IMG/VR virus record: IMGVR_UViG_3300043570_000570
Span: 1-64,000 of that record
Direction: 5' to 3' (one strand)
Source: a virus
Length of the DNA stretch: 64,000 nucleotides
Notes under the pieces: generated by a model
What the model was told of the DNA's origin: nothing
The model's database searches: none
The model's input: only the letters and a program-made list of their open reading frames with translations
Position numbers and translations under genes: made by a program
Part shown: piece by piece, positions 2,884 to 45,755 of the stretch
Position numbering within the stretch: the stretch's first letter is position 1
How the letters are laid out: every line of letters starts with the position of its first letter

Positions 2884-2888
2884 ATTTG

Positions 2889-3692
2889 TTAAACTACTTG
2901 GCGAGCGAGGGTTGTGTTAAACGCTTGCACTGCGGTGTAAAAGTTGGATGCTTGGGTGTCGGTCAAGCCATCACCGATTGAAGCAAATGCAGTTTCTTTG
3001 GTAGAAAATAAATTCGCCGTTCCGCCTTGGTTAAAACATCCTAAATAAACATTGAAACTATTCATACTATTAGAATTTTTAGTTAATGTTTGGCTAACGT
3101 TATTTGTATAGTATTTTTCTTCAGTGCTTACAATTCTGCTACCAATTAACATACCCAAAGTAGGGCTCATTGCTGATGTTCTGAGAGTTTCTGGGGCATT
3201 AATACCACTGGGTGCGATATTATTCAAATTCATAATTAAATAAAACGCATCGGTTGCACCACCAATAGAACCAATATCTACTTGTACGCCTACTATATTC
3301 GTTCTTGAGTAGTAGGAAAGGTGTGCATTGTCCAATGTAATGTTTGAACTTGGAACAAATCCAGTATTCATAAAAGCACTTGCACCGTTTGGCGTTGCGC
3401 CCGTACTCGCAAAAGTCCAACCGCTTGAAAAACTACCCGGAAAACTTGCACTCTTTAAGTTTTGCGCACACGCTGCCGCACTTGCTCCGACCATGGGATA
3501 CACAGCACGCATGGCCGTCCAAATTCCTGCGGCCTTCATGTCTAAAACCAGTTGGTTAGTAGCCGTCTGCTCTGTTCCGGTTAAGGTCCCGCCGGCTGCT
3601 GTCACCCTATCAAAGAATGCCTGAGCATCGGGGTCTATAGTAGGCCCAAAACCAGCTTTTTGAAATCCAAAGAATGATGGGACTGCGAACAT
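2889..3692 (-). CDS. LamG/ConA-like beta-sandwich virion protein (putative receptor-binding/decoration)
   Basis: DPDAQAFF..V.AAGGTL N-terminus, YPMVG, and FASIGDGLTD.QA.NFYTAVQAFNTTL C-terminus; tail-fibre context. Confidence 0.6.
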   Translation of the reverse strand: MFAVPSFFGFQKAGFGPTIDPDAQAFFDRVTAAGGTLTGTEQTATNQLVLDMKAAGIWTAMRAVYPMVGASAAACAQNLKSASFPGSFSSGWTFASTGATPNGASAFMNTGFVPSSNITLDNAHLSYYSRTNIVGVQVDIGSIGGATDAFYLIMNLNNIAPSGINAPETLRTSAMSPTLGMLIGSRIVSTEEKYYTNNVSQTLTKNSNSMNSFNVYLGCFNQGGTANLFSTKETAFASIGDGLTDTQASNFYTAVQAFNTTLARQVV

Positions 3693-3693
3693 A

Positions 3694-8800: not shown

Positions 8801-11652
8801 TACTCTAGAGTATCAACATCAGTAGTATCTATTAAAGCTTGATTGTAAGCAGCAACAGCTTTATCATAAGCAGTCTTTTTACTGTTGAGCTGTATATCAA
8901 ATAAGTCTTGATTCTCTCTACTTATAGTATAAGTATAAAGTTCTGCGGCAGCCCTACTTTTCTTCCACTCTCTGATATTAGCAGCTATTCTTAAACCTGC
9001 TTCATCTTTTAAGTTTTTATTTTTATCGTAGTCAGACTCAAGTAAGTCTAACTCTTCTTTTAAATCATCTAACTTATCCAGTTGTTCTTCAGAGTTTTCC
9101 TCTGTAAGACTACCCACCTGGATTTTGTTCATCTCTTCAAATATTAAATCTCGTGCTTCTTTTGATTCAGCACTCAACATATTCTGAATTTGATAATAAA
9201 CATCATCAAAAGGCTGCTCTTCAAACTCTAACTGTGTTCTTCTTATTTCAGCTTCTTTAGCTCTGATTAAGTCCTTCAGTGCAGAGTCTTGTACTTTAGT
9301 TTGTTTAAGTTCTCGTAACTCCGACTTTAATTTAGTAATAAGGTTGTTGTAACGAACTTCATCCATCTCACTTAAGAGAACCATAGTTTCTCTCTTAGAG
9401 ATTTTACCATTCCTACTTTCTAAGATTTCTACTTTCTTAAGAAATCTTCCAAAAACATTTTCAAAGTCAAAAGAAGTGTTAACACCTATACCTTTACTGG
9501 TTAAATGGGCTTGCAACTCGTCAGCTATTTTCTTCAACTTAACCTCCATTGCTTGAGCTTTTACGTTAGCTGAATCGAATTGATTAGCAATCATACCCCC
9601 TACAGTGCCTGTAAGAATGTTTCCAGACAATCCTGCAGATTCTAGGAATAAAGAAAAGTTCCCTACATCTTTAATCTGACCTCTAAGGGCTTTTAACAAG
9701 TTAGCTTTAGTTGCTAGTGTAGACATCCTAGCCTCTTCATTCCTGATACGATCTTCAGTAAGTTTGATAAGTCTTTCGTTACCGAGTTTTTGTAAACTTG
9801 CTAATGAAGTTTTAAATCTATCTATATTATCTTGAATTCGTTTTTGAGCGTCTTTTGTTTGAGGCTCAAACTCATCTGCTAATTTAATAGCCAAAGCTTC
9901 TACAGCGTTGTTAAAATAAGCTTTAGAAAGTGAGTCTGAGGTTGATTCTAAGTTAAGAAGTTGTTGACCTAAAACAGTGTTAGCTCCTAAGTCTCCCATT
10001 ACTCTACGATAGTTTTGAGCTAAGTTTGTATATTGTTCTCCTAACTCTTTAGCATGGTAAGCCTGTCTAAACAGTTTGTCTTTTGTAACACTAGGATCAG
10101 AAGACATTTTACTAAGAGAATTTCTTACACTTGCTAGATACTTAGAACTATCATAGAAGAAACTTACCAAAGATTTAAAAGACTCAGTAGCTTCTGCTGC
10201 AGAGATTTCTACAAAAAGATCTTTAGTTCTAAGTACACTACCTACATTTACTCCAAGAATTTCTGCTTGGTCTCTTATCTTATTCCAATCAATTAAGTTT
10301 TCTGTTTGTAAAAGTTCATCTAAACGAGCAAGAAACTCAACTTTGTCTCTTTTCTCATCATCTAAGAACTCGTCCATATCCCTCATCTGTGCATCACTCA
10401 TAGCATAAGGCATAGAGTTTAACTTAGTGTAAAGCACACTTGTATTAATATCTTGTGCAAAGAGTACTTCATTAAAGAAGTTCTCTAGTAGAAGATCTAC
10501 GTTTTCTAGACTATTAAGATTTTTATTTAGGTTTAGTTTCTTACCAAAGAACTTCCAAATTGCATCTACGATTTTAAGAAACCAATTAGGTTCCTCCTTT
10601 TCTAAAAGGTCTCTGAATGCTGGGTTAGTAAAAAACTCTGATACAAACTCGTGAATATCTCTAAATCCATAATAATCTTCTACCTTTTCTTTGGTAGAAT
10701 ACTTTTGTTGATAGTAAGCTAGAATAGGTTTAAGACTATTTACTAATGCTTTATCTGCTTCAGTTGTAGGGTTCTGTAAACTAGAAGCTAGAACTGAGTG
10801 TAAAATCTCGTGTAGAATTACACGTCTAGAATAATCCAGTCCTCTGCTTTTTAAACCAAATACATTTAATTTAATAGTATGAAATTCAGGTACATACTCT
10901 CCCATAGGAATTTCTTCCCTTCCCTCTAAGTCTTTTCCTGTAAAAAAGTCTAAGCCAATATTAGGAATCAAGTCTATGATAGGTAGAAGTTTTTTAATTA
11001 AAAACTTTTCATAATCAGGCGTCTCAGGATCATTAAGAATTTTAATTAAAGTATCATAAACATCAGGCTGTTGAAAGTCTACATACTTCTTTAAGAATTC
11101 TATTCTTGTTTCCTTACCCTTAGTCAAATTTTTGCTAAATACTTCACCTTCGATAAAACTGCCTAAGTAGATTGTGTTTAACTCTGTAAATGGTATTGGA
11201 TATATCTTATACATCCTGTCTAACACAGATGCTTCAGGATTAACAATATCTATACTTATAGAAGAAACTCCTTTTTGTTTAACGTAGTTAGCTACTTCAA
11301 GCAAAGTAGTTAGGTTGATTGCAGTATCTATTCTTACTTGAACATCTTCAAACAAGTCTTGTGCTCCTCTAAGATACTCTACTTGCTCAGGAGTTAAAGA
11401 ATCAATGCCTAAGTTGTTAAGCAAGTTGTCTGAGTCTATTTCTACAAAATTTCCAAACCTACCCTTATCCTTGTTTAAAGGTTTAGGCCAAGTATTATTT
11501 CCATCTTTCTTAGAATACAGACTTCCTTGTTTAACTAAGTCTATAGCTTGTTCATTACTGTATCCTACTTGGGATAAAGTATAAGCAAGTACAGAAGTTT
11601 GATTCATCCCTGTTACAGGATTAGTATATTTTATGACGCAGCCTTTAGACAT
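5854..11652 (-). CDS. Giant ejected cargo protein with zincin metallopeptidase domain
   Basis: 1932 aa; ILHEILH (10798-10812) plus downstream HEFVSEFFTNP.F; helical; adjacent to the vRNAP as in crAss-like phages. Confidence 0.75.
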   Translation of the reverse strand: MSKGCVIKYTNPVTGMNQTSVLAYTLSQVGYSNEQAIDLVKQGSLYSKKDGNNTWPKPLNKDKGRFGNFVEIDSDNLLNNLGIDSLTPEQVEYLRGAQDLFEDVQVRIDTAINLTTLLEVANYVKQKGVSSISIDIVNPEASVLDRMYKIYPIPFTELNTIYLGSFIEGEVFSKNLTKGKETRIEFLKKYVDFQQPDVYDTLIKILNDPETPDYEKFLIKKLLPIIDLIPNIGLDFFTGKDLEGREEIPMGEYVPEFHTIKLNVFGLKSRGLDYSRRVILHEILHSVLASSLQNPTTEADKALVNSLKPILAYYQQKYSTKEKVEDYYGFRDIHEFVSEFFTNPAFRDLLEKEEPNWFLKIVDAIWKFFGKKLNLNKNLNSLENVDLLLENFFNEVLFAQDINTSVLYTKLNSMPYAMSDAQMRDMDEFLDDEKRDKVEFLARLDELLQTENLIDWNKIRDQAEILGVNVGSVLRTKDLFVEISAAEATESFKSLVSFFYDSSKYLASVRNSLSKMSSDPSVTKDKLFRQAYHAKELGEQYTNLAQNYRRVMGDLGANTVLGQQLLNLESTSDSLSKAYFNNAVEALAIKLADEFEPQTKDAQKRIQDNIDRFKTSLASLQKLGNERLIKLTEDRIRNEEARMSTLATKANLLKALRGQIKDVGNFSLFLESAGLSGNILTGTVGGMIANQFDSANVKAQAMEVKLKKIADELQAHLTSKGIGVNTSFDFENVFGRFLKKVEILESRNGKISKRETMVLLSEMDEVRYNNLITKLKSELRELKQTKVQDSALKDLIRAKEAEIRRTQLEFEEQPFDDVYYQIQNMLSAESKEARDLIFEEMNKIQVGSLTEENSEEQLDKLDDLKEELDLLESDYDKNKNLKDEAGLRIAANIREWKKSRAAAELYTYTISRENQDLFDIQLNSKKTAYDKAVAAYNQALIDTTDVDTLEYKKQTIEYYKKQFDLWKANNCVRKISPDFYKQRKEIVDAITIIQSRYPAPSGVRRMDEVWNDIFGVLKGYKNSDNFYEGSKIASPNPDGTPSNLAGLVREYEEEIEKIKTAYKTDVDMSKEDADNLKDLFSSFGDIQEKVYTPDYVREYTSKLNLIKTSLIATNSLRYQDQADDALLEVDATKELRKTDWYKQNHKKVNVWDENNQMWTLSDEPLYFWMSTEPTDKNLITDTSPSFRWNTIAVNPKYVRADIKNVKYSKRVPLRTDKTEYRNKEYDKLDAKEKEILKKITDVYLDLQKGTPMNLKKGLELPSVLMDPAEKALKNTNMGTLKSKIGATFQGIWDKATFEDDEETARSQEGGSIIQKVSKKLYLKYNKPIPADKMSINILNSIAMYGADLIRFKEAYEVMPYIYGMQDVLKESLPGTKIEKMINNLFERKLQGKSRKFLVNNKAGRMVEKVLDMALSANSPIVLAYRLPSSVKNFMAGSANVFIQAGIYGLSRKEIFKAMGRNAVHIADLFQSEVEDGRDSEYISRMRYFNVMPEDQLSETGRKLFISKLGKYRKYNPFNFLGFFRTFGEFEMRSAVAEALSQQFLIPLTDKPEGVPLFEAYDFKDGILVPKDTIVDQEGFQKIEQYYRGKLNHVNAAIQGAYGSMDKGEYSRYTLGRIIGNMKGWVAYQGMRRFKVGRTINPRSGEEFQGFYVTVVQALKLLYQSNFSLPATRNLMTPAERREAEGAAIDMLALAVIMAVSAILNSIRYDDEDEEDMYVVYFLLYNLLMIEDELNSLNPVFSPLSIYYSRFQNNVDGQNFAQYYLNRNVLLPFSGATDAVKLTIEMLNPFDDANPFDEYVPRSRSGKISNPKRYPPDPTLKGDMEISARIQKLFGLNASINYFLNPEYLFRKYEKYNPKWYISSLDADLKSEKRSVNSIGKQIKSIERQLDYVEDLDTKQNLLEKIESLQNERSESKERTSSLVDIYSETGRK

Positions 11653-11691
11653 CTTGTTTGTTTAAATTTAAATTGTTTACTTATTTACTTA

Positions 11692-11721
11692 CAAATATAA
11701 TTGGTTTTTTAATCTTCCCTA
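11692..11721 (-). promoter_or_regulatory. Putative promoter
   Basis: TAG-N19-TATATTTG; the -7 element is intergenic. Confidence 0.55.
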
Positions 11722-14700
11722 CACTTAGTTACCTCAAACTCAGTGTTTTCTAAACTGTCCATGTCTGCAGGAATCATAGCAACTGTGGGAACCGTAAGCT
11801 CAAGATTAACTGCTTGTGGTGTCTGTAAACCATAAAGTACTGGAGTATTGTAGTTATAATTACTTAAATCTACTTTATAACCCCCAGGTTCCCCGTTTAA
11901 TCCCTCAACTTTGTTTTCCCATACAAGTTTAACTCCACTTACTTGAGTCATTGCATTATAAATAGCACCTGTTTCAATAGGTTTACTATTACTAATATTC
12001 ATAATAGTATTAACTACTCTATCTAGATTTTGTTTAGACTCTTTTTTATAGTCATTAAGTTTTTTAATAGCTTGTTCTAATTCTTTATCAGATAATTTTT
12101 TAATATCTTCTCCTGAATTAATACCTTCCTCACTGCTATCTAATATACCTATGTTTAAAGCAGCTTCATATTTTATCTCTTTAGCTCTTCGTTCAGTAGC
12201 TTGTTGGTATGCTTTTTCGTATTCTTGCTTTGAAATTAGAGTCCTTATAGATCCCTCTAATTTCTCGTATTTTCCAGAAACAGTACCTACATTGTCTACT
12301 TTTATTTTTTTAATAATAGGACTTATTTGTGTTTCATTAGTTTCTGTAATAATTCCATCTTGTTCTAATATCAACCCATTATTACCCTTAGTTACTTTTC
12401 CTATTAATAGGTCATTGTGGTATAATCCTTTGGTGTTTTTATCAAGTTCTTTAACTGATATATCATATTCCTCAGATAATAACTTCCTTTCTCCTTGATA
12501 CTGTTTAAAAATTACTTCATTAAATATAAACTCATTTTTATTCACAATATTAACCTCATCTTTACCTGCATATATTAAAGCAGTTCTGTCATTATTTTGT
12601 GTAAGTTTGGTAATTTCAAACCCACTAAAGTACATAGGAAAATCTTTTCCATACTGATTAATGTGTTTTTGAATAAGATGATGGACTAAGGGAGTAAAGT
12701 AATTCATCTCTACCTCCAGAGTCTGTTTTACTTCTTCCTCTACTTTTCCATAATCTTTCTCTAATTCTTCTTTTTTATCCAGTGCTTTTTGTTTTAATGC
12801 AGTGAAAGTATTTTGTTGTTCTGTAAATAATAAAAAACTAGTATCTATATCAAGTAATGAGGGATTAACCTGTTTTACGTAATCTAAAAACTCTTCAGAA
12901 GACCACCTAAACATCCCCATGTAACCAGTTTGACCTAGAAGCATTTCATCAAAACTAGGACTTTTTAATAGTCGTGCAACTACTTTTTTCTCTGTTGACT
13001 GATCGCCTGCAAAACTAAATTGATATTCTCCTAAATTTCCGTTAATAGTCTGCTCTAAGTACTGTATGATAGACTTAGCTTTTTTAGCTTCTGCGTTTTG
13101 CCCAGAGTTTAAGTCTTTTTGAGATTGCTCTTTAACAGACTGAACCAATAGATTTTGATTATATTTAAAATTCTCAATCAATGTGTTGAACTGATTAGCA
13201 GTTATTTTAGATAAACTTAAATTAAACTCATAAGCTGTAGTAGCATTTCTGGCCATACTATAAATTCGCTTAGTATCATTTATTGCTTTAGAAAGATATT
13301 TATCCATTTGTATTTCGGAAAACGCTAATAGAGAATCCACACTCTCGTTTAACTTCTCCTCATTTGTGCCCCTTAGGTGTCTTTGGTTTCTAGACAAACG
13401 TTTAGCAGGAACCGATAAAGCGATTAAAGGAGCGTTATCCCCATAGAGTTTTCTAAACCTCTCATTTATCCCTTCTCTCAAAGCAATAGTTCTAGATTTA
13501 AATATTTCTTTTTTCTCTGCTACAGTGAGGGCGTTATATTCCCACTCAGCAGTTTCTATAGGTTGATTTAACTCCCTTAATATAAGTCTCAATTCCGCTA
13601 ACTCACTCTCAGTGAGTAAAGATCTTATACCTCCTCTTTTCTTAAATTCTGCAAATTTTCTTTTAGCAGTGTAAGTTCCATCGACTAATTTTTGGGCTTT
13701 TTCAGGCCTAGTATATACACTATCATCTGATTTATAAAGTTCTATAGATTCAGCAATCCTTTGTTTAAAGGTAGCTAAAGCTTGACCCCCATCTATTCGC
13801 ATTTCTTTCAAACTATCTAATAAAGTATTTAAGGATTTATAAGTTGAAAATTCTCCACTAAAATGTGTTACGACACGTGAGTTTGGAGACTCTATTTGTG
13901 CAATATTAGCAAGCAACGTTTTGTTAAGATCCTGCAAATACCTGCCCAAAGAAGTTTCTACGTTTACTTTTTCCGATTTATATTCTCTAAGAAACTCTAT
14001 ATTATCGTTTTGTATTTCGTGCAAAAGTACTCGGTCTTTCCATTTATTTTTACCTGTATAAAAATAAGTAAGATTACCCCACGCAGAAGGAGACTTATTA
14101 AAGTGTCCTGATTTCAAATGATACTTGTCATTAAATCTTAACGACACTTTGTTATGGTATACGTCTGGGTTTTGTTTAGTTAGCCCTAATATAGTAGCTA
14201 TTCTCTGCCTTTCTGCAAAGGGAAGAGCTTGAATTTCTGCTTCTGTCATATTAGCTAACTCAAAATCTTCGTCCGAAGATCTATCTTTTACATTTGTAAA
14301 AGTTTGATCTACCCTATAGGATAAATAAGTACTTTCGTCAGCAAACCCTAATAGATAGTGAAAATTTAACCACTCATGTACTTGCTGTACAAAATCTTCT
14401 GCGGTTATAGATTTTAAATTAGGATTTTCTGATTTAATCATTTTCCTAATCCCGTCAAGAATAGAAAGTTCTTGTTTTTTAGCACCATCTAACTTAATGG
14501 TTTCAGAGAGTACAATAGGATTTTTTTTGTATTTTTGCAATAAATCAGGTAATACTTTTAATGTAGGAGCTATATTAGTGTAACCATTAGTTCGGACTAA
14601 CTGTTCTTTCTCTTCATCCGATAATTTTTTTGTTATTTTTTCTAACTCTTGAGAAACATTCCACGGTTCTAGTGTATATAAATTGTCAGAATCGACTATA

Positions 14701-17700
14701 TTAAAATACTTTCTAAGAGTTTTTGGCAAAAACTTTGATTTTTTTCTAAACGATTTATTTAAAAGTCTATCAAAAAATTGTTCGTTGTCTCGTACTTCTT
14801 GAATAATTGCTTTTTGTCTTTGATTATGTTCTGGAACATTAGTAGATACCCAATTATCAAGTTCTTGCTGAGTAGAAAAGTAAGGGGAATTGTCACCATA
14901 CTTTTGTTTATAATCAGAATTTCTAAAAACAAAACCATACTTAAAAACAATAGTATTATCCTCAACGATGAGAAGATTATCAGCTGCAATCCCTATATCA
15001 TCAATCAAAGTATAATCAACAGGGGCAACAGATTGATTAGTTAGTACATCAGCAAAATTTACTATATTATTTAACTTACTATACTCTGCCCACGTCATTA
15101 AATCAGACATATCAGATGAAAGTATCTTCATTGCTGCTACCTCAAAAGGATCAATAGTAGTATTCTTAAAGTTTTTAATTACACTGTTAACCCAATCTAA
15201 AAACTTTTTAAAGAAAGAGTAGTCTGAAGTATTAGCGTTTTTGTTTTCTATTCTTTTAATAGATTCTGCAATAAGTTGACCTATTGATTCTTCTGTAAGA
15301 TCCTCAGGTTTAGAAACTAGTTTACCATATTCTGTTTGATATAACTTATTATTTTTTAAAGCTACTTGATGTGACTCCCACAAAGCTTTTTTAAGCGGAG
15401 AATTAGTTTCTAATAATCTGTACCAAAAGTGAGCAGCTTCTTCTGGAAGTTTATTCCAGGCTTCAGGTCTTTTACTTAAGTCGTCTATAATATCCACAGT
15501 ACCTTCTATAAAGTTAGCGGCCGCTATAGCTCCTTCTACAACAGATCCTTCCTGAGATAAAAATTCAGAAACTAATCTTTGTTCTACTCCTACATTTTCA
15601 AGAAACTGGGCTACTACGTTTAAAGTATTCACATGAAACTCTAACTGTCCCTGATTTTGAAGATCTATTCCAAATAAGATATCGTTATTCTGTGTAGTAG
15701 TAGATGGTTGAGTAGATACAGGTATATCTCCTGTATTATCAATACCTATTTCAGCAAGTTTTATATTAAGATAATTCCATATTTTAGGAGCACTATCTTT
15801 CATATTAGAAATAGCACCTTTACCAAAAGGCATTTCTGCACCAAACTTAATACCATTATAGTTCTTAGATGCCTGTTTAATAGTTTCTATTTCATCATCA
15901 ATAATTTTCTTGTATTCATTAAACTGGTCATCTGTCCATTGAGTTCTCTTATCATCTACCATTGTAGTAATAGGATAAACATTTTTAAGACCTCTTGCTA
16001 CAGCTTGTGTTTTACTTGCATATTTTTTATCTGCACCATATTTTTTAGCATACCAACTGTTAGGATCAATAACTCCTGAGCCTGATGTTCTACCAGCATT
16101 ATCTGTAAATAAATACATATACTCTGTATCTTTTTCAGCTGATTCTCTAGTAAATCTTTGTGATTCATTTAGAGGAATTACTTCAACACTAGTAGATGGT
16201 TGAGTAGTAGCTGCAAGTGTCTTAACTTGTTTTTGTTTAGTTCTTTCAGCTATAATAGATGCCTCATCAAAACTATCAAATTCAGGTTCAGAAGCATCAT
16301 TAGAAGATTCCTGTGCATAGGTCTTAGCTTTAGCTAAGTTATCCCCATTTGTAATTTTAGATTCTTTTACGGGCTCTTTTGTAAAGTCTGGGAAAGTTTT
16401 CATTTTACTTGTTACCACAACTTCATTTAATTTACCAGGCCAATAAATAGCAGAGTGAATATCAGTAGTTTTTTGTAAAAAGTTACCTAAAAACTCTGAA
16501 GTTTCAGGGTTGTCTATAGACTCTTTAATCTTCTTAAGAACAATAGAAAGTTCAATCATAATATCCGTTTGAGCTTCCATAGGAATAAAGTTATGGATAG
16601 AACGATACTTGATGTTAGATCCTTGACTTAATAAAACAGTGTTAGCTAAGTCACTAAAGAACCCTCTTACTTCGGGGTTAGGATGGTTAAGTCCATCAGA
16701 GAAATCTTTTTGTCCTGCATTTACCGTATCTACATCCTTCTCGTTAGTCAACATACCTGGATAGAACATAGTTGTGCCATCTACCATGATAGAAGTAAAG
16801 TTATTTAAGATAATATTATTATTAGCAAAGGTTCTTAGTTTAGAATCTTCTGTATTGTTAAAGATAGTATCAAACCTAGATCGCAAGTTGTTCTTAGCTG
16901 TAGTGTCTAGTAATCCTGAATCAGGACCATATTTAGCATACCAAGGCTTAAGTTCAGGAGTATTCTGGAAGAAAGACAACATCATAGAATTCATGAGTTG
17001 GTTAAAGTTTTTAACTGTTTTATCCCTTCCCCAATACTTACCATAGTAGTTCTTTACCATATGTAAATGTTGTTTAACTATGTCTAAAGAGAAAAAGTCC
17101 CATACTTGATCTACTACAGACTGGTTAGCTTCTAGAATGTTAAAAGGAGAAACAACACTGTTTTCAAGAATCTTATTAATTCCTTCAGGATTAAAATTGT
17201 CTGAAGCTTCTATAATACCTTGAGCAGTAGAATAAAACTCTGTATTAATACGATAATTTGCTGTATTAAAGTCGATGTTAGTTGTTAACTCCAGTAACAT
17301 TTGATTCTGGGTTTGAACTATATAGTATTGAGCAATAAAAGCCAACTGTGCTTTAAGAGCCTTTGTTCCTTCCTTTGTATTTCTGTTTGCCTTAATTTTA
17401 TCATAAGGACTTCTGTATACGTTAGGGTTAGGGGGGTAGTTAGTTTTGTTAAAATTTTCTGCTGATAATGCTTCTACAATACTTGGAGTACTCATTACTT
17501 TTTCTATAGTACGACTCTCATCTATCTTTCCATTTACATACACAGGCTTTTCGTTTAAGAAGTTCATAGCAGGAATAATATAGTCTTTAAACAAATCAGC
17601 AGGTTTCTGTCCTAATGCTTTACCTACCTTAGTAATCTTACTAGATCTAATGTAGTGTTGTACAATAGGTTGGTTCACTAAAAGAATAGCTTCTTCTACA

Positions 17701-20700
17701 GGAGTACCATTAATTACCATTTGAAGAATCAAGGGGGTTCTTTCCCTATCTGCGTTAAAGAAGTTAATCCAGTCTTCCTTCTCGATATCTACGTGCCCGT
17801 TAATAAACTCGTTGATTACGTCAGAAATTAAATTAATTCCATCAGCATCATACAAACCTCCCAACTCAATCTCTTTAGTGTTTTTATTTTTATTGGCTTT
17901 AAGTAAGTAGAATTTATTTAAATCAATAATTTCTGGATTGCTCTTAAATCGTAATCCAGTTTGTTGGTAAAGTTTATGTAAAGCGTTTACTTTAGCATCT
18001 ACTCCCAAAGATTTTTTACCTAAGTTGTTCTCAGTAAAGATTCTAACTGAGGTTTCAATTAAGAACATAGCACTAGAAGAAATACGACTAGATTTACCTT
18101 TCATCTTTTGATACTCTTCAGCAATAGCTGGCAAGATTATGTTAGTGTTTGGTTTTGTAAACTCTGTAAAGATACTAGGCTCCGACAATATAGAAGATAT
18201 TACAGAAATCATATTGTTAGAAGCAGATCCTTTAATTGCTTTCTCTGAAATGTCTTTCATATCAGCAAGTACTTCATTGACAGCAACTAAATTTTGTAAC
18301 ATTTCTACTACGTTAGGATCTTGACTACGAAGGGTTTTAAATCTCTCAATAGCAATACTAAGCTTCATGTTTAACGGACCAATGTTTTCTTTAAATTCTG
18401 TAATTGTATCTGTATCTCCAGACTTCTTAGCTTCTTTTAGATTGTCTATAAACTTCTTAAGAGTTTCAATTTCTTTAGATACTAAGCCAGCCTCTTTAAA
18501 GTCAGCAGAGGCAAACAAGCTTTGTAAGCTGTTTGCTTTAACAGCTAAGAATTCATTCTTTGCTAAGATATTATCTATGATTTGTGCTCTAAACTCAGGA
18601 TCATTTAGTCTAGGATTAGATACTAAGTTTCCATTGTCATCCAACTCTGGCTCATACATAAACAATTTATCTATGTCAAAATCCGATCCAGACTTAGTTA
18701 TAATAGAAGGAGGAACTACCATTACAGGGCCCCCTACATTAGATAAGAACCTACGTACTCTAAAATACTCCATAGAGTTTAATCCTTGTACAGGAATACG
18801 TACTCCTACTATAGTAATTTTAGCAGAGTGTTCTGTTACCCAAGCATCATCTTCTAAAGCCTGGTTAAGTCTATCTAAAGTTGCAATACGTTCTCCGTTC
18901 CAAGTAAGATTAAGTAAAGGAGAATGTTTCTTAGGATTAAAAGGAATTAAAACATCTGCAGGTTGTACTACTCCATTTTCAACACGATAGTCTCTTAAAC
19001 CACTTACGTTAAATCCACTTGCTATAGTTTTAAGTTGAGCAGTAGTAGGTTTCTTCATCCTAGTTCCTAATTTATTAAACCCTGTAGAAGCTAATTGAAT
19101 ATACGCTTCACCGAACAACTTAGGTCTTAATACACGTTTAGATAGTGCACTAGAAATAATCTGATCTATTAAAGAACGTTGTACACCTGCATCTAAAGAA
19201 AATACAAAAGAATTGGTAAGAGTAGGTCTTAAGAAAGAGTATACCGAAGTAGGAACATCCTTCTTATCAAATTCATTTTCTAACCAAATGGTAAAATCCA
19301 TAGTATTAATAGCAGTTATATTTCCGTTATCATCTACAGTTGCTCCAATTTGAGAATAGATTTTTGCTTTTTCTACGTCTACAATAACTTGTACGTTTTC
19401 AATAAAAGCATTTTGAAGAGCGTTAATCTTATCTTTTAAGTGAGCATACTGAGGATTCATTTCTCCTGCTACATAAAAGTTAGAAAAAATAAGTTTAACC
19501 ATCTGAGTAGAAAGGGTAACTTCGTTCTTAGTCTTAGGAGCTATGTACTGCTGTCTACGCAATCCATCAATAGGAAGTCTAAATACAGCTTCAGGATCTA
19601 CTTTAGTAAGTTTTAATTCGCCATTCTCTCCCTCTACGTACGTAGAAACCCCCTTTACATTTTTCTTTTCATAGTAAGAAAGTTCTTTTGTAGGAGTAGA
19701 CATTTTATTACCACTAGAAAAGGTCGCTAAATCAACTCCCTTGTCTAAGTAATCCAGCATTAAACCTTCTAAGTCAGTATCAAACACCATAGAAGGACTC
19801 AAAGGAAATACAGAGTACTTACCTAGTACATTGTATTTTGTGTAATCTGTAGGAGATCCATAGTATCCTAACTTTAAAGAAGTTAAAATACCTAGATTAC
19901 TCTTTTCAATTAAATTATATACTTTGGCTTTGTCTGCATCAGACTTAGACTCTCTGTAAGTTTTAATTGCTTTAAATACTTCTAACTCATGTTTGTATGC
20001 TTTCTCTAGTTGAGGAGGCCATTCTCCTACAGAGTTAAGATAGAAACGAATAAAATCTAAACTAGCATAAGCTTGAGCATTTGCTTCTTCGTCCTGTGCA
20101 AAAACAGCATTGACGTTGTTATCAATCTTTTTAGTTTCTCTAGCTACTTCCCCAGGAGTAAGAGGACCTTTAACAGAAACTAATGCACTTATATAATTTT
20201 CTCTCATGCTCTCTCTGATACTATCTCTTGTACTTTCGTCTAGATACTCAAATGTTTTTACATCTTCGTACTGTACATAGTTAAGATTATTATCATAAGC
20301 TCTTGCTTTTCCTTTACCTCTTTGAAGTTCTTCTAATCCTCTAGACAAAACACCGTTAGAACTATTGTTCCAAGAGTTAATATCTTGATTATCCAAACGA
20401 GGTTGTTTTCCTGGAGAAATAGCAGCACCTAGACGCTTAAATACCTCTCTCCATTCTCCGTTTTTAATCTTAAAGTTAGAAGGATCACCTATAAGCAAGT
20501 GCAGTAACTCTACCTGGTGAGCATAGTAGTTAGTAGCAAAGTGCATTAAAGTAGAGTTTATCTCCTCATCAGTGTATTCAGAGCCATCGTTCTTTGGGTA
20601 TAGTCTATTAAACTGTTTGGCCAAGTCTTTGTTTTCTCCCTTGCTTAGGATTTCTATAAAAGAAGTTCTTAGACTCTGAACAGAATCTGTAAAGTAATCT

Positions 20701-23700
20701 GTCAAAGAGTTTTTAAACTCCCCATAAAGACTGTTACTAGACATTCCAAACATTCCAAGTAAAGCACCTTTAAGAGCAGCTTTGTTTTCAGCAACATTTA
20801 TAGCTTCCTTAATTCTATCTTGCATAGATTCAGGAATCATATCTTTAAATATAATAAAGTCTGATCCTAAAATTTCTTTTCTGTTTGATTGTGCTTTGTC
20901 ATCAAACATACGCATAGCCTCAAAATACAAGTACTGTTGCATCTGTGCTACAAAAGAAGAAGCAAGTACAGTTTTATTTTTAAAGTTATATTCTTCGTAC
21001 GGAAAGTACTCTCTATCTGATTTGTTACCGTTTATAGAAGTTGCAAAAGAACTACTCTTAGCTCCTACTCGCATATTTTCTACAATAGCATCTCTCTTAA
21101 AAGAAATAAAATCTTGAAGTAACTTACCATCTCCAGTAAGGTTAGTTGTCTTGTCCCCCATAGAAGTTCCTATGGTATAGCCTGACATGTTAGCAACTCT
21201 TAATTCTACAGCTTCTCCTGCAGTAGTAAATCTTCTTGTACCATCATCTGCACGAAACATTTTCTTCATTAGGATACTATATTCTAAGAAGTTGTTTGTT
21301 TCAGGGTTTAAGTGACCACTTAAGTCATAGATACTTTCTACACTATTAATCTTAGAAGCAGTGTCTAACAAGTGATTCCATTCTCTTACTGCGTACTCTA
21401 AGTTACCTTCTGGACTAATGTATGAAGCAGAGTTAGAAATATTATAGATTTTTTCAAAAGCAGAAAAAGCAGAAGTTCTTTCGTTATCTAATGTAGCAAA
21501 CTTAAAATGTGCAGCTACATATTCTTTTATTGCTTTCTCTTTAGGACTAGAACCTAACTTATCTATCTGACCTTTAAGTTGCTTAGACAAATCAGAAGAC
21601 AAAGTCAATAAAGGGTTAGAACCTACAACAGGTGCAGAAAGTTCTGAAGGAAGCATTGAAATAAGATTTAACTTAAACAGTGCATTGTTTGCTATTCGTA
21701 CAATGTTTCTTGTATTGGTAGGAGTAAATACTGGATTTACACTAAACTGTAATTCTCCTTTCTTGTTAAACAACAAGTTAGGGTTTCTATTACCAATTAA
21801 ATCAATACCAAAAACATCATTTAAAAATTCAAAAACTGCTTTGTGAGAACTGAAACCTGTTTCTTTATAAATAGAGTAGTCTGTTAACACACCTGCAGAA
21901 TCAAATATAGCTAAAGTACTTTCACTAGAATCTGTTATTCTATATTTACGAAGTCTGTTAGTTACAAAGTTTTGATCAAAGTATTCTATAAGCTTTTCTT
22001 GAGACAAAGTATTGTTCAAGAAAGTTACGTGTTCCATTACAGTGTCCTTATCTTGAGATACTTTGACAGTTGTAGATTTAATTCTAGACTTAACTTCATA
22101 AGGAGATACAGTAGGCATAGCTGCAAACTGCATAAACTGTGCTTTTAAAGCCATCTGAGACAATGAAAGTGTGTCAGTAGACTTAGGTAACCTATCTATT
22201 AAGTTCTGTAACTGAGGAGCAATATCTAAAGAATCCCTTAGTCTCTGCAATGCTTCTTCATAGTTTATAGAACCGCTTACCTTATTTAAGATTAAGTTCT
22301 TGTTTCTAAGGAAGTCCCCTGCTTGTGGTAAACCAAAAGAATTACCTGTAGCTGTTATTAGTTCTCCTTTATTATTATAATAAATTCCTGGAAGAGTTTT
22401 AATAAGTTGTAAGATTTCAGGAGAAGCGAGTGTCATAGGATCTACATCTTCTGCATTTGCAAAACTTCGACTATCTCTAGTAAAGTTTTCTTCATTCATT
22501 TCATCTAACCTATTGTCTACATCAGACTCATTTATATTATTTCCTAAATAGAATACACCTCCTTTAGAATTCTTTTGATGATTCTTTACTACTTGACTCC
22601 AACCATCATTCTCTGCAGTACGTACTACTAATCCTTTTAGATTCTTTATTCTAGAATTTAAAACAAGTGCAGTAGCTTCATCAGCAGTAGTTGCTTCTAG
22701 TTGTAAAGCACTGATATATTGCAACATAGAATCCCTAGCACTTTCATATAACTTAGGAAGGTACACAGACTTAAGTCTAGTGTCAAGCAAGAAAGACATA
22801 TCTAACTTAGAAACGTTACCGTCTGCATCTGTAAAATTGTCCATTGCATCTGCTAAGAAGTAGTCAATAGCACTAAATATTTCTGCAGCCTCTAAAGCGT
22901 TATAACCAAAAGGAATAACTCTACCATCCTTTGCTTTGTATTCAATCTGGAAAGCTTTATTTCTGTTTAAAGCTTTTTCAGAAATGTTACTGACATTTGG
23001 TTTGTATTCAGATAATTGATTAGAATATAATTTTTCAAACAAACCAGCAATACCTTCTACTAATGCTTCTGGGCTCTGTTGAGCAACCTCTTGAGGACTT
23101 ACTATAAATAAATCTGTAAGAAAGTCCCAAATTCTTTGAAAGATAGTTCTTACAGGAGTCTCTACTATAGGGGGAACAACTTCAGGATTAGATTTATTTA
23201 AAGCAAAGTCTCTAAACTCTTCTGCAAGCACTTCTTCTATCTGACGATTAGTTAAAGAGTAGTAAGGTACTTCAGTACCATTAATATTAACAGTAGAAGG
23301 TCTAGATTTAACTGTTTGATATAAAGCAGTTCTCTCTTCTTTGGTCATGAATCGTTGAGTAAATTCATGCCATCCTTCGTGATAAAGATCGGAGTAATCA
23401 GATCCTTTGTATAAAGTAATTGCAGACTTAGTCCAGGTAGCAAAAGAACTTTCTTCTCTATTCTGCATGTTAGCAAACTGTAAGTGAGCAGACAAAGGAG
23501 AACTCTTAAACCAGATGTAAGAATCTAATAACTGTCTGCCATTAGCAATCTTACGTGTTTCATCAAAAGCAACTTTTTGTAGATTCTCACTTATAACTCT
23601 TTCTGCTTTAAATCCTTGAGCAACAAACTTCATTACTCTCTCTGAAGCTTTTTCTAAAGTTTCATTCTCCTGTACAAAACTGTGTATGATGTTTGCCTGT

Positions 23701-23990
23701 TCTTGTATTGGAAGATCTTTAAAGTTTGGATTGTTTTTATGTAGCTTCTTGCTATAAAAGATAGCAGTGGCTAATGTAGCTTGTTTTACATTGTTGTAAG
23801 AGTTTAAAAAGTGATTGTATAAAGGATTGTCTACGACTGTTTCTTTTCCTTTTATTTTTATCACCGTTTTATCTAGAGGATATCCTCCGTTTCTATTCCA
23901 TACAAAATAGGCAAAGTCTTCTCCTACTAGGTTACTAAGGTGAGTAAACTCAGCACGTATACTACTATCACTTAAATTAGGACAAATCAT
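11709..23990 (-). CDS. Virion-packaged single-chain RNA polymerase (crAss type) with N-terminal zincin and long C-terminal polyvalent extension
   Basis: GVRIPVQG..S and GSDFDIDKL (about 18664-18689) catalytic motifs; YHEGWH at 23367-23381; 4093 aa. Confidence 0.88.
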   Translation of the reverse strand: MICPNLSDSSIRAEFTHLSNLVGEDFAYFVWNRNGGYPLDKTVIKIKGKETVVDNPLYNHFLNSYNNVKQATLATAIFYSKKLHKNNPNFKDLPIQEQANIIHSFVQENETLEKASERVMKFVAQGFKAERVISENLQKVAFDETRKIANGRQLLDSYIWFKSSPLSAHLQFANMQNREESSFATWTKSAITLYKGSDYSDLYHEGWHEFTQRFMTKEERTALYQTVKSRPSTVNINGTEVPYYSLTNRQIEEVLAEEFRDFALNKSNPEVVPPIVETPVRTIFQRIWDFLTDLFIVSPQEVAQQSPEALVEGIAGLFEKLYSNQLSEYKPNVSNISEKALNRNKAFQIEYKAKDGRVIPFGYNALEAAEIFSAIDYFLADAMDNFTDADGNVSKLDMSFLLDTRLKSVYLPKLYESARDSMLQYISALQLEATTADEATALVLNSRIKNLKGLVVRTAENDGWSQVVKNHQKNSKGGVFYLGNNINESDVDNRLDEMNEENFTRDSRSFANAEDVDPMTLASPEILQLIKTLPGIYYNNKGELITATGNSFGLPQAGDFLRNKNLILNKVSGSINYEEALQRLRDSLDIAPQLQNLIDRLPKSTDTLSLSQMALKAQFMQFAAMPTVSPYEVKSRIKSTTVKVSQDKDTVMEHVTFLNNTLSQEKLIEYFDQNFVTNRLRKYRITDSSESTLAIFDSAGVLTDYSIYKETGFSSHKAVFEFLNDVFGIDLIGNRNPNLLFNKKGELQFSVNPVFTPTNTRNIVRIANNALFKLNLISMLPSELSAPVVGSNPLLTLSSDLSKQLKGQIDKLGSSPKEKAIKEYVAAHFKFATLDNERTSAFSAFEKIYNISNSASYISPEGNLEYAVREWNHLLDTASKINSVESIYDLSGHLNPETNNFLEYSILMKKMFRADDGTRRFTTAGEAVELRVANMSGYTIGTSMGDKTTNLTGDGKLLQDFISFKRDAIVENMRVGAKSSSFATSINGNKSDREYFPYEEYNFKNKTVLASSFVAQMQQYLYFEAMRMFDDKAQSNRKEILGSDFIIFKDMIPESMQDRIKEAINVAENKAALKGALLGMFGMSSNSLYGEFKNSLTDYFTDSVQSLRTSFIEILSKGENKDLAKQFNRLYPKNDGSEYTDEEINSTLMHFATNYYAHQVELLHLLIGDPSNFKIKNGEWREVFKRLGAAISPGKQPRLDNQDINSWNNSSNGVLSRGLEELQRGKGKARAYDNNLNYVQYEDVKTFEYLDESTRDSIRESMRENYISALVSVKGPLTPGEVARETKKIDNNVNAVFAQDEEANAQAYASLDFIRFYLNSVGEWPPQLEKAYKHELEVFKAIKTYRESKSDADKAKVYNLIEKSNLGILTSLKLGYYGSPTDYTKYNVLGKYSVFPLSPSMVFDTDLEGLMLDYLDKGVDLATFSSGNKMSTPTKELSYYEKKNVKGVSTYVEGENGELKLTKVDPEAVFRLPIDGLRRQQYIAPKTKNEVTLSTQMVKLIFSNFYVAGEMNPQYAHLKDKINALQNAFIENVQVIVDVEKAKIYSQIGATVDDNGNITAINTMDFTIWLENEFDKKDVPTSVYSFLRPTLTNSFVFSLDAGVQRSLIDQIISSALSKRVLRPKLFGEAYIQLASTGFNKLGTRMKKPTTAQLKTIASGFNVSGLRDYRVENGVVQPADVLIPFNPKKHSPLLNLTWNGERIATLDRLNQALEDDAWVTEHSAKITIVGVRIPVQGLNSMEYFRVRRFLSNVGGPVMVVPPSIITKSGSDFDIDKLFMYEPELDDNGNLVSNPRLNDPEFRAQIIDNILAKNEFLAVKANSLQSLFASADFKEAGLVSKEIETLKKFIDNLKEAKKSGDTDTITEFKENIGPLNMKLSIAIERFKTLRSQDPNVVEMLQNLVAVNEVLADMKDISEKAIKGSASNNMISVISSILSEPSIFTEFTKPNTNIILPAIAEEYQKMKGKSSRISSSAMFLIETSVRIFTENNLGKKSLGVDAKVNALHKLYQQTGLRFKSNPEIIDLNKFYLLKANKNKNTKEIELGGLYDADGINLISDVINEFINGHVDIEKEDWINFFNADRERTPLILQMVINGTPVEEAILLVNQPIVQHYIRSSKITKVGKALGQKPADLFKDYIIPAMNFLNEKPVYVNGKIDESRTIEKVMSTPSIVEALSAENFNKTNYPPNPNVYRSPYDKIKANRNTKEGTKALKAQLAFIAQYYIVQTQNQMLLELTTNIDFNTANYRINTEFYSTAQGIIEASDNFNPEGINKILENSVVSPFNILEANQSVVDQVWDFFSLDIVKQHLHMVKNYYGKYWGRDKTVKNFNQLMNSMMLSFFQNTPELKPWYAKYGPDSGLLDTTAKNNLRSRFDTIFNNTEDSKLRTFANNNIILNNFTSIMVDGTTMFYPGMLTNEKDVDTVNAGQKDFSDGLNHPNPEVRGFFSDLANTVLLSQGSNIKYRSIHNFIPMEAQTDIMIELSIVLKKIKESIDNPETSEFLGNFLQKTTDIHSAIYWPGKLNEVVVTSKMKTFPDFTKEPVKESKITNGDNLAKAKTYAQESSNDASEPEFDSFDEASIIAERTKQKQVKTLAATTQPSTSVEVIPLNESQRFTRESAEKDTEYMYLFTDNAGRTSGSGVIDPNSWYAKKYGADKKYASKTQAVARGLKNVYPITTMVDDKRTQWTDDQFNEYKKIIDDEIETIKQASKNYNGIKFGAEMPFGKGAISNMKDSAPKIWNYLNIKLAEIGIDNTGDIPVSTQPSTTTQNNDILFGIDLQNQGQLEFHVNTLNVVAQFLENVGVEQRLVSEFLSQEGSVVEGAIAAANFIEGTVDIIDDLSKRPEAWNKLPEEAAHFWYRLLETNSPLKKALWESHQVALKNNKLYQTEYGKLVSKPEDLTEESIGQLIAESIKRIENKNANTSDYSFFKKFLDWVNSVIKNFKNTTIDPFEVAAMKILSSDMSDLMTWAEYSKLNNIVNFADVLTNQSVAPVDYTLIDDIGIAADNLLIVEDNTIVFKYGFVFRNSDYKQKYGDNSPYFSTQQELDNWVSTNVPEHNQRQKAIIQEVRDNEQFFDRLLNKSFRKKSKFLPKTLRKYFNIVDSDNLYTLEPWNVSQELEKITKKLSDEEKEQLVRTNGYTNIAPTLKVLPDLLQKYKKNPIVLSETIKLDGAKKQELSILDGIRKMIKSENPNLKSITAEDFVQQVHEWLNFHYLLGFADESTYLSYRVDQTFTNVKDRSSDEDFELANMTEAEIQALPFAERQRIATILGLTKQNPDVYHNKVSLRFNDKYHLKSGHFNKSPSAWGNLTYFYTGKNKWKDRVLLHEIQNDNIEFLREYKSEKVNVETSLGRYLQDLNKTLLANIAQIESPNSRVVTHFSGEFSTYKSLNTLLDSLKEMRIDGGQALATFKQRIAESIELYKSDDSVYTRPEKAQKLVDGTYTAKRKFAEFKKRGGIRSLLTESELAELRLILRELNQPIETAEWEYNALTVAEKKEIFKSRTIALREGINERFRKLYGDNAPLIALSVPAKRLSRNQRHLRGTNEEKLNESVDSLLAFSEIQMDKYLSKAINDTKRIYSMARNATTAYEFNLSLSKITANQFNTLIENFKYNQNLLVQSVKEQSQKDLNSGQNAEAKKAKSIIQYLEQTINGNLGEYQFSFAGDQSTEKKVVARLLKSPSFDEMLLGQTGYMGMFRWSSEEFLDYVKQVNPSLLDIDTSFLLFTEQQNTFTALKQKALDKKEELEKDYGKVEEEVKQTLEVEMNYFTPLVHHLIQKHINQYGKDFPMYFSGFEITKLTQNNDRTALIYAGKDEVNIVNKNEFIFNEVIFKQYQGERKLLSEEYDISVKELDKNTKGLYHNDLLIGKVTKGNNGLILEQDGIITETNETQISPIIKKIKVDNVGTVSGKYEKLEGSIRTLISKQEYEKAYQQATERRAKEIKYEAALNIGILDSSEEGINSGEDIKKLSDKELEQAIKKLNDYKKESKQNLDRVVNTIMNISNSKPIETGAIYNAMTQVSGVKLVWENKVEGLNGEPGGYKVDLSNYNYNTPVLYGLQTPQAVNLELTVPTVAMIPADMDSLENTEFEVTKCRED
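15698..16207. repeat. 18-bp direct repeat (TAGTAGATGGTTGAGTAG) encoding TQPST, flanking a ~160-aa domain
   Basis: Copies at 15698-15715 and 16190-16207. Confidence 0.85.
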
Positions 23991-24012
23991 TTTATTTTAG
24001 TTGTTATTATTA

Positions 24013-24020
24013 CAAATATA
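24013..24020 (-). promoter_or_regulatory. -7 promoter element upstream of the vRNAP gene
   Basis: Intergenic TATATTTG; no canonical -33. Confidence 0.5.
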
Positions 24021-24058
24021 AGTTGTTAATGTTGTTTTGGTTTAAATATCAAAGATAC

Positions 24059-27000
24059 TTAAGCAATATCGTCTAGGTCACCCTTACAAGCCTCTTTTAC
24101 TTCTTTAGCTGCTGCTCTAAGTTCTTCTTCATCTTGTAAAGAATCTAAGAAAGGAGACTCACTAGTTACTTCTGCCTGAGGCTCTTCAAAAGTATTTGCT
24201 GTAAGTACAGGACGAGTCTTCTTGGCAACAGGAGGTTCTGCAGGTTGCGTAGGAACAACAGGAGCAGTAGGGACAGTAGAACTCATCTTACCTTCAGAAG
24301 GATTTGCTAAATCTATTTCTGCAAGGAATCTAGGAGTACCAAAGTTTTTACCAAAAGGAGAATTAGGCTTTACTAAAATAATAGTAACAGGCTTTTCTCT
24401 TTCTGCTATTTGTACTCTAGCTGCATAGAACGGAGAACCTAATGCACCTGGATCTTCTGAATCATAAGGAGTAAGTTCAAAGTATACACTAGCTCCTGTA
24501 CCTCCGTTATTATTTTTTATTAACTTGGGATAGTACACAGTAGATAATTTACTAGGATCTGCAAGAACTGTGTTAACTGCCATTTGATAAAATTCTTCTC
24601 CAATTCGAGTAATCCCTGATAATTGAGAAGCATCTGGTACAGCGCTTTTACTTATAGCATCTAATGCTTTAGGATATAAAAGAATAGACAAAGTCTGTAA
24701 TGCAGATGGTCCACTAGGTTTAGCAGGTGTTTCTAAAGCAGCTACAACATCTATAGGTTGAGCAGGAACAGCAGGAGCATTTACTACTTGCTTAGGAGTT
24801 TCTACCTTAGGCACAACTCCAACTATTTCTGGAAACTGTTCTTTAAGAATTTCAGTAGAAAGATAAACAACCTTGTTTACAGGTCTAGCTACTTCTCCAT
24901 CTTTAATAGGGAAGTTGTGAGTATCTTTTAAGTACTCAGCGTAAGACTGAGTTACAGGACCTTCTGGTTTAAGTCTTAAAATAGAATCTCCACTCTTCAT
25001 CAAAGTAAGACTTGCCTTATAATAATGGTTTTTAAGAACGTCTGCAAACTCTTCTTTAGTTAACACACTGTTTTGAAATCCCGTAGGAGTCTTTTTTGAT
25101 TGAACAATTACTACAGGAAATTGACCATTGCCAGGTTCATAGTCTTCGTTTACAAAAAAGTGTAAACGACTATCTCTGTCTACTTGGTTAATTAAATTAA
25201 ACAAATAACCTTCAGCTTCTTTAGGACTTGCAAAATAAGGGTTCTCTTCAGAGAAATATAATTCAGCTAATGCATCTGCTTCTGCTGGATCTATTTTATT
25301 GTTAGTCAATAAAGTAGGATTACCATTATTGTTAAAGTAAACACGACCTTTCTCAAAAGCATAATTCCTTCCAAACACAGGCTCTCTAGGATCTTCTATA
25401 ATTTTAAAGTCACTAATTCTTGCTTTCTTTATGTTTTCTAATTCCGTACTACTTCCTCTCTCAAAAGTATTTATAGGAGTAGGAAGCATAATTCCAAAAG
25501 AAACATCGTAATCAAAATCTAAATAAGGTAAAGAATCTTCAAAAGAATTTGCTTCAGACACTGCTTTCTTTAAAGCAAGTAATCTTTGAAATGTATCTGC
25601 ATTTTTATTCCTAAGCTCTTGTTCTGATCCCCCCAACTTAGAGTACTCTCTGATAACATTGTCACTAATTTTAAAACTACTAGAAGTAGTTAATGATAAA
25701 TTTAACTCCATAGGAAGACCCTCTAGTGTTACTAGGTTTTCTTCTGAATCTATAGCTGTAATAATTGCTTCTGAATTTGTAAATAAACCAGAACCTACTG
25801 GAAGAAGTTTACCGTTAGTATCTGTAGAGGTAAAAAAGAATTTAATCATTCCTGAGTCATAGAAATTCTTTCCTATGATTGCATCTATAGGAGTCATTAG
25901 AATTTCCTTATCCTCTTCACTCATAGCATTCCAAATATCTACAGACATTTGGTTTTCAGAGATATGAGTAACAATCTTTTCAAACTCTTGTGTAGGATCT
26001 ACATCCTCACTTCTCTGCATTATATGATACTTCAAGAATAGTTTCCTATTCATAATCCTAATCTTAATATTAGGAGTAGTAGTAAGTTGTTCTATTAAAG
26101 ATACATTTCTTCTTACTGCAGGATCTTCGTTCTTAGTGTTATTCTTAGTATACTCAAGTGCTGCACTTCTTAAAGGAGAAGCTAAGTACTCTAACTGAGT
26201 TTTACGAGCCTGTACTTCTTGAGTAACTACTTCATTTAACCTATCAACCTTACCTTTTTGTTTAGGATTAGGCTCGTTTTTCTTAGGTACAGTCTTAGTT
26301 CCAGTGGGGGGAATAGTTGTAGTAGTTGTAGTCGTAGTTGTAGTGGTAGTCGTAGTTTTTTGAGCTACTCTATCTGCAGGCATATCATTTGCAAAGTATC
26401 TATCTGCAATAAACTTAAGGAATATTACAGCATCTGCTTTACTTTTATTCTCTTTATTAGCTCTCCATACAGATAAGAAAATATTTCTAAACTCTGCAGG
26501 AGTAATCTTTTTGTCAAGCAAGTTATCAAAAGCATTTATTAAAGTATCATAATCTTTTGTGCCTTTACTAAATACTGTAGCCAATCGTTTTTTAATCTCA
26601 CCTTCGATAGCTGGAGCAAATCCTAAAGGATTACTCTTTGCCCTCTCTACCATTCTTTCATATCCTGCAAGGTAAATATCATCTCTGTTAGATTTACCAG
26701 ACTCATCTACTACTTCAGGAGTTTCAGCTGCTTGTAATGCTACTTCGTTAAATTCTTTTTGTCTTTCTTGATCTTCTTCACCTTCAGGTAAAACTTGAGT
26801 GCTTACAGATTGTTTTGATCTAGCGTCTGCTCTTCTTTGAATAAGCGCTTCTCTTGAATCTTCTAGTTCTTCCTGTGTATACTTTGCAGCAGGGAACATT
26901 TGATTTACCAAATCTACATTATAAGCGTAATTAGTATTTTTTAAAGTTACTTTATCTAAAAAATCAACAAGGACTTTAGACCTAACCTCAGGAGTAGCCT

Positions 27001-45719: not shown

Positions 45720-45755
45720 CTCAGGATATAGTTTGGGTTAATTTAAGGTTCATTA

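Follow-up and report, generated by a model that had tools for sequence, protein, structure and literature searches.

The 64,000-nucleotide stretch of viral DNA analysed here, referred to as the window (IMG/VR record IMGVR_UViG_3300043570_000570, positions 1 to 64,000), contains the three pieces of a conserved crAss-like cargo module. These pieces, named proteins A, B and C, are giant proteins that are almost free of cysteine. A script count found five cysteines in the 8019 residues of A, B and C together, and four of them lie at the four protein ends that face each other across the A/B and B/C junctions. Comparison of homologous modules strongly supports the view that two facing cysteines work as a pair and serve as a connector between separately encoded pieces, a role that a peptide bond can replace.

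Cysteines at the junctions of the cargo trio

Protein A (1994 residues; 24059..30043, minus strand) is the first cargo piece, followed by protein B (4093 residues; 11709..23990, minus strand), a homologue of virion RNA polymerases, and by protein C (1932 residues; 5854..11652, minus strand), which is phi14:2 g065-like and bears a zincin motif. The sole cysteine of A is Cys1986 (codon 24086-24088, minus strand), found in the sequence EACKG, 8 residues before the end. It is part of a 64-residue C-terminal tail ending in ...LQDEEELRAAAKEVKEACKGDLDDIA (24062..24253, minus strand). A relative with a 99% identical A part lacks this tail as well as the first 158 residues of B, having in their stead a cysteine-free linker of about 40 residues by which A is fused to B. 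B has only Cys3 and Cys4090. The former (MICP; 23982-23984, minus strand) is located in a 37-residue N-terminal 'CPN head' (MICPNLSDSSIRAEFTHLSNLVGEDFAYFVWNRNGGY; 23880..23990, minus strand), and the latter (EFEVTKCRED; 11721..11723, minus strand) is 3 residues from the C-end. Protein C starts with MSKGC, in which Cys5 (11638..11640, minus strand) is invariant among homologues, and also carries Cys971 (8740..8742, minus strand), the sole interior cysteine of the trio.

These positions and coordinates had been obtained by eye in an earlier sequence-only reading of this DNA, and the script count showed them to be exact. It also confirmed that the outer ends of the trio, the N-end of A and the C-end of C, are without cysteine, and it allayed the concern that interior cysteines had been overlooked, as Cys971 of C was the only one found. 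Given five cysteines in 8019 residues, finding one in each of the four junction windows of 9 residues has a probability of about 2e-10. Cys971 is outside the junction rule: only the three closest C homologues (75-99% identity) have it, and the 27 others do not.

The neighbouring virion-type open reading frames (ORFs) of 530, 573, 737 and 822 residues contain no cysteine at all. A 190-residue protein (34525-35097, minus strand) does end in a cysteine, Cys190 (...KRWKC), and has a second one at position 159. Since the next protein downstream, that of 822 residues, lacks cysteine, this protein does not extend the chain of facing ends.

Conservation across crAss-like lineages

To place the window trio among its relatives, 93 loci were collected from IMG/VR, and iterated A, B and C profiles were used to label their large ORFs. 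Clustering of the polymerase cores at 50% identity resolved these loci into 37 lineages of crAss-like phages, of which 16 (including L039) encode the cargo in three pieces, 18 in two pieces and 3 in one piece. Twenty of the 93 loci were read with TAG as glutamine; the 13 that were checked are open only under this code.

Terminal cysteines are a constant feature of all three families. C homologues, down to 21% identity, have a cysteine at position 3-8 in 30 of 30 cases, and this is the sole cysteine in 25 of these proteins of about 1950 residues each. In the B family, a cysteine is found 0-12 residues from the C-end in all 51 homologues and at position 3-7 in 45, the remaining six being A+B fusions. 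Cys3 and Pro4 of B are invariant in 25 aligned homologues. All 28 members of the A family carry one cysteine 8-26 residues from the C-end.

At the level of lineages, all 50 junctions have cysteines on both sides, in the upstream piece among its last 32 residues and in the downstream piece among its first 13. In L049, the A-type cysteine is 31 residues from the end. The cysteines occupy the extreme ends of the proteins, the C-end cysteine being followed by a median of 1 residue and the N-end cysteine preceded by a median of 3. A lysine or arginine lies within 2 residues of the C-end cysteine at 33 of 46 junctions, against an expectation of 42%, an excess that counts in favour of a disulfide. 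The outer ends behave differently from the junctions. None of 33 outer C ends has a cysteine, and the two found among 31 outer N ends are both artefacts: in L058 the contig end cuts off the upstream gene, and in L074 the cysteine, Cys8, precedes the probable true start, in an ORF that overlaps the previous gene by 47 nucleotides. The expectation of the sequence-only reading that terminal cysteines would be conserved and paired by junction is thereby borne out, the true outer ends being without them.

Interior cysteines are rare, with 88 in 222,510 residues (0.04%) and none in 22 lineages. The loci read with TAG as glutamine (L040, L052, L065, L066, L072-L092) have 3-71 in-frame TAG codons per giant ORF, and their lineages keep the junction cysteines alongside 7-15 interior ones.

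Several elements of this system are already known. The cargo trio of Crassvirales has been described: virions contain all three proteins, the last of which has a zincin domain, and in some phages the trio is fused into one polyprotein. Packaging and injection of the RNA polymerase with the virion are known from phi14:2 and crAss001 alone. For crAss001, published work also covers the cargo zones and disulfides of the tail, and for cyanopodophage A4 it describes a single disulfide. For terminal cysteines in crAss-like cargo proteins, no description was found in the searchable literature.

Fusions, splits and a natural exchange

Gene fusion removes the cysteines together with the protein ends. 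Six A+B fusions of 4561-4749 residues have no cysteine near the former junction, and the B+C fusion of L054 retains only its N-end cysteine, opposite the C-end cysteine of an A piece. The single-piece proteins of L041, L051 and L069 (5153-5346 residues), which show homology to A, B and C or to B and C, contain no cysteine at all. Conversely, L039, in which A and B are fused and an extra piece precedes C, has an extra cysteine pair at its extra split. The sequence-only reading had raised the question whether fused or split homologues lose or gain junction cysteines, and they do so in both directions. The position at which the chain is split varies by lineage, being at B profile position 1, about 120 or about 400. 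Because the split points differ between lineages, the cysteines follow protein ends and mark no homologous site.

The closest view of such a replacement is offered by L010, in which A and B are split, and L009, in which they are fused. In their A parts, the 99% identity extends to a point 64 residues short of the A terminus. From there, L010 continues with the cysteine-bearing A tail and then the first 158 residues of B, including the cysteine head. In L009, an acidic, cysteine-free linker of about 40 residues takes the place of both stretches and leads straight into the zincin domain of B. Over the compared segments (L010 3140-9820, L009 10001-24112), the A parts are 99% identical and the B parts about 28%. 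A recent recombination has exchanged the whole polymerase together with its connector. The 37-residue B head (MICPNLS..F..L..G..AY.LW) is itself portable: at least 9 other lineages have it at residues 1-40 of a B or a C piece.

The cysteines could instead be independent of each other, bonding other virion components or marking processing sites, and co-occur simply as features of free protein ends. The many disulfides between crAss001 tail proteins lend this idea some substance. However, the outer ends of the cargo are equally free and yet lack cysteine (none of the 33 C ends, and only the two artefacts at N ends), single-piece forms are without any cysteine, and fusion removes exactly the two cysteines that face each other. 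Independent cysteines are therefore considered extremely improbable. Also rejected was a conserved DNA-level stop/start element that would encode cysteine by chance: spacers between the pieces range from -10 to +358 nucleotides, the cysteine positions vary, and the gp47 gene of crAss001 lies on the other strand.

A few loci appear to break the pattern of paired cysteines at every seam. In L024 (5811-12331), the C gene is found in two ORFs of 928 and 1208 residues, in different frames and 108 nucleotides apart, without junction cysteines; sister contigs have the C gene as one ORF. Other apparent exceptions, namely L001 and L025, in which B is truncated, and L013, in which the A part is truncated, also have intact sister contigs. 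All four are most simply explained as frameshifts or assembly errors. For annotators, the rule can thus separate real gene splits from frameshift artefacts such as that of L024, and it may help find the ends of cargo modules in metagenomic genomes.

Cargo proteins of cultured crAss-like phages

The same arrangement is found in two cultured phages, whose cargo blocks (g067-g066-g065 in phi14:2 and gp47-gp50-gp49 in crAss001) are homologous to that of the window and also have in common with it DFDID, a last piece bearing a zincin motif and the pattern of terminal cysteines. In phi14:2, the single cysteine of g067 is the terminal residue (1797), g066 (2180 residues) has Cys3 and Cys2179, and g065 has Cys3 only. 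In crAss001, gp47 has only Cys2339 of 2341 residues, gp50 has Cys5, Cys1334 and Cys2404 of 2412 residues, and gp49 has only Cys5. The window differs in the size of B, with 4093 residues versus 2180-2412 in the cultured phages and a variable C-terminal extension of about 1480 residues, as well as in the position of the A/B split along the chain.

The A-like gp47 gene of crAss001 is on the opposite strand, and its product still has the C-end cysteine. Gene order is therefore not what determines the pairing; the order of the pieces in the ancestral chain is. The sequence-only reading had predicted the pairing from gene order, and it holds once piece order is substituted.

Both phages provide concrete predictions. 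In phi14:2, C1797 of g067 would pair with C3 of g066, and C2179 of g066 with C3 of g065. In crAss001, gp50 would be joined to gp49 through its own C-terminal peptide ICGANTLYEL and the peptide CAIIPQVR of gp49, and to the C-end of gp47 through its peptide CITTNSTIEELAAK. A cysteine at every seam is thus a cheap and concrete hypothesis for two cultured models, and one that names the exact residues.

Nature of the link

The simplest chemistry for the connection between two facing cysteines is a disulfide, which is plausible by analogy with other phages. The closest precedent comes from cyanopodophage A4 (Anabaena phage A-4L, Saffermanviridae), where cryo-electron microscopy (cryo-EM) of the pre-ejectosome revealed a disulfide between Cys1715 of gp27 and Cys5 of gp26 (PNAS 2025, PMC12002296). 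According to the A4 genome, these are the sole cysteines of the two proteins, at position 1715 of 1717 in gp27 and position 5 in gp26. As at the window junctions, gp27 and gp26 are consecutive giant ejection proteins with lone cysteines at their facing ends, and even the start of gp26, MSKHC, resembles the MSKGC of protein C. A C-end cysteine upstream and an N-end cysteine at about position 5 downstream, as in A4, are found in the window and at 50 of 50 crAss-like junctions. The A4 system differs in having one link, no chain and no RNA polymerase, and in forming an ordered pentameric ring. The A4 study describes one bond in one phage and no evolutionary rule (PMC12002296). In the crAss001 virion, the tail contains several disulfides (PMC10172136).

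Taken together, these observations make it probable, though far from certain, that the separately encoded pieces are joined by junction disulfides into an A-S-S-B-S-S-C chain. The C-end cysteine of each upstream piece would bond the N-end cysteine of the next, so that Cys1986 of A would pair with Cys3 of B, and Cys4090 of B with Cys5 of C. In two-piece systems, head-to-tail pairing is the only one possible. Since the stubs beyond the cysteines are very short (medians of 1 and 3), the product would be nearly linear, and such a covalent chain could stand in for a polyprotein of about 5200 residues. The bonds would form after assembly of the particle, on leaving the reducing cytoplasm. A link of this kind may fix 1:1:1 co-packaging and an ordered exit, and may be opened by reduction in the host cytoplasm. 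The sequence-only reading had proposed C-to-N disulfides or, alternatively, shared metal sites. The pairing of cysteines by junction stands, and the disulfide itself is plausible from A4 and the crAss001 tail. The shared metal site finds no support, the cysteine alone being conserved in the junction flanks.

Several considerations weigh against the disulfide-linked chain. In no crAss-like phage has a disulfide been observed between A-, B- or C-type proteins, and the cryo-EM study of crAss001 reports no ordered density for gp47, gp49 and gp50 and makes no mention of their cysteines. The junction flanks are very diverse, and a crude regular-expression test for co-variation between C-end and N-end motif classes (acidic capped-helix C-ends versus C-[PIV]-[NLIM] N-ends) was not significant (p=0.36), so that specific docking of the ends is not demonstrated. 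Assembly takes place in the reducing cytoplasm, and a bond could therefore form only later. None of seven crAss profiles matched A4 gp26-gp29 at E values up to 10; without sequence homology of A, B and C to gp27 and gp26, the A4 precedent is an analogy. Finally, gut lineages tolerate 7-15 interior cysteines, which weakens the argument that stray cysteines are forbidden. A co-fold of residues 1-330 of B with residues 1925-1994 of A, run on the window sequences only, with no alignment and no controls, scored 0.00 and weighs on neither side.

The same disulfides could act as an assembly lock and nothing else, stapling a folded core inside the capsid, with no pulling role, and then break or become irrelevant at ejection. 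The A4 bond indeed sits in a folded pentameric ring, in which gp26 has a cleft that receives a helix from the C-terminus of gp27 (PMC12002296), and many crAss-like C-ends resemble a capped helix ending in cysteine. Such a core is, however, not seen as ordered density for gp47, gp49 and gp50 in crAss001, and the placement of the cysteines at the very tips, together with their replacement by a polyprotein, fits a linear chain better. A role confined to assembly is accordingly judged unlikely, although locking and chain formation are mutually compatible and not exclusive.

Other chemistry might join the ends: a metal ion that bridges the thiols, or a permanent bond made by way of a thioester or by transpeptidation. 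The comparative data show only that two cysteines act as a pair, and both B and C have a zincin-like HExxH domain 200-280 residues away from the N-end cysteine. Against a metal bridge, there is no conserved pattern of histidine, cysteine or aspartate ligands beside either cysteine, and a pair of thiolates with no further ligand is a poor structural site. As for a permanent bond, crAss001 virions analysed by reducing sodium dodecyl sulfate-polyacrylamide gel electrophoresis show bands of about 150 and 270 kDa; the text consulted names no proteins for them, and by our own assignment they fit separate gp49 and gp47/gp50 by size. With separate proteins on a reducing gel, any link would be reducible and no peptide bond. 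The absence of an intein or ligase-like domain also argues against permanent ligation, and chemistry other than a disulfide is regarded as very unlikely.

Split inteins and viral polyproteins, which make one chain out of pieces or pieces out of one chain, are a further comparison, as pieces and single chain are interchangeable in their evolution and cysteines occur at the seams, as in the crAss-like module. Unlike split inteins, the crAss-like pieces carry no intein fragments, and the crAss001 bands just described fit separate proteins. A split intein with trans-splicing was rejected, given that only 0-8 residues follow the C-end cysteine and 1-7 precede the N-end cysteine, and that no Pfam intein domain is present.

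The ejection proteins of Schitoviridae (N4 gp50-52, DEV gp71-73) are a second point of comparison. They are almost free of cysteine, which has been explained by narrow channels and the oxidising periplasm (PMC11445570). Like the crAss-like cargo, the N4 and DEV sets comprise a giant virion RNA polymerase and partners that are nearly without cysteine. In N4 and DEV, terminal cysteines are absent as well, whereas the purge in crAss-like phages spares exactly the junction ends.

An extension of the disulfide-linked chain would be a redox-cleavable thread, along which the proteins would be drawn through the tail in fixed order, each by the one before it, until reduction in the cytoplasm frees the pieces and switches the polymerase on. 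Such a device would be general in Crassvirales, would have arisen independently in A4-type podophages and could be exchanged in evolution for a peptide linker. The full proposal is tentative, and we regard it as possible but doubtful. Should the disulfide prove real, the virion polymerase, which is self-inhibited and whose activation step is unexplained, could be activated by reduction in the cytoplasm.

Identity of the cargo proteins and other features of the window

The window, whose DNA has been found in lake-water metagenomes from about 20 studies, includes a structural module of the crAss type, with large terminase (TerL), portal, major head protein and a 1670-residue muzzle-like protein. 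The module continues with small cysteine-free proteins and then A, B and C, all on the minus strand. The muzzle-like protein (38718-43730, minus strand; phrog_37948) has 26 cysteines, 20 of them within its first 330 residues, in sharp contrast with the adjoining cysteine-free cargo proteins.

By homology, protein B is a virion RNA polymerase of the Crassvirales phi14:2 gp66 type. Its catalytic motif DFDID (residues 1770-1774; 18669..18683, minus strand; translation checked) is invariant in the alignment of 25 homologues and the same as 1361-DFDID-1365 of phi14:2 gp66. A profile iterated from B matched phi14:2 g066, the enzyme of PDB entry 6VR4, with E=7e-266 and also crAss001 gp50, and the latter, annotated as 'putative RNA polymerase', was matched by B in a tblastn search as well. 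B is located in the structural module between g067-like and g065-like genes. The C profile matched phi14:2 g065 (E=3e-122). In other lineages, A-type pieces were connected by iterated profiles with crAss001 gp47 and with phi14:2 g067, the latter being matched by the A5 profile at 6e-204. A, B and C are thus probably the packed and injected cargo of a crAss-like phage.

Zincin-like HExxH motifs are present in two of the three proteins. In B, this is HEGWH at residues 204-208 (23367..23381, minus strand), of which H204, E205 and H208 are invariant; in C, it is HEILH at residues 281-285 (10798..10812, minus strand), and both translations were checked. In B and C alike, the motif follows the N-end cysteine by 200-280 residues. 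Two C homologues matched the Pfam SprT-like family, and the C profile gave a weak match, in the zincin region, to PDB 8vb2, a 'tetrameric ejection protein gp48'. Apart from this match, PDB searches with A, B and C, direct or with profiles, yielded nothing useful; for B, neither the single sequence nor a 25-sequence profile found anything. PHROGs and Pfam returned nothing for A or C, and for B a single sub-threshold match, DUF7831 at residues 2612-2742.

Beyond its conserved polymerase core, B has the C-terminal extension of about 1480 residues mentioned above (residues ~2610-4093; window 11709-16160). This region is variable, and B proteins of close relatives range from 2791 to 4093 residues, all of them keeping the last ~10 residues with the cysteine. 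In some relatives, PF08719 is found in place of DUF7831.

The spacers between the cargo genes contain a promoter-like word, TTATATTTGTAA, which occurs once in the 68-nucleotide A-B spacer (24010..24021, minus strand) and once in the 56-nucleotide B-C spacer (11689..11700, minus strand). A third exact copy (45753-45764, minus strand) lies upstream of a 213-residue ORF. These three are the only exact copies of the 12-mer in the window, all of them intergenic and on the minus strand, each 26-45 nucleotides ahead of a start codon, namely that of C, of B or of the 213-residue ORF. With one mismatch allowed, there are 6 matches versus 1.5 expected. This distribution suggests that the word is a candidate promoter element and that B and C each have a promoter of their own.

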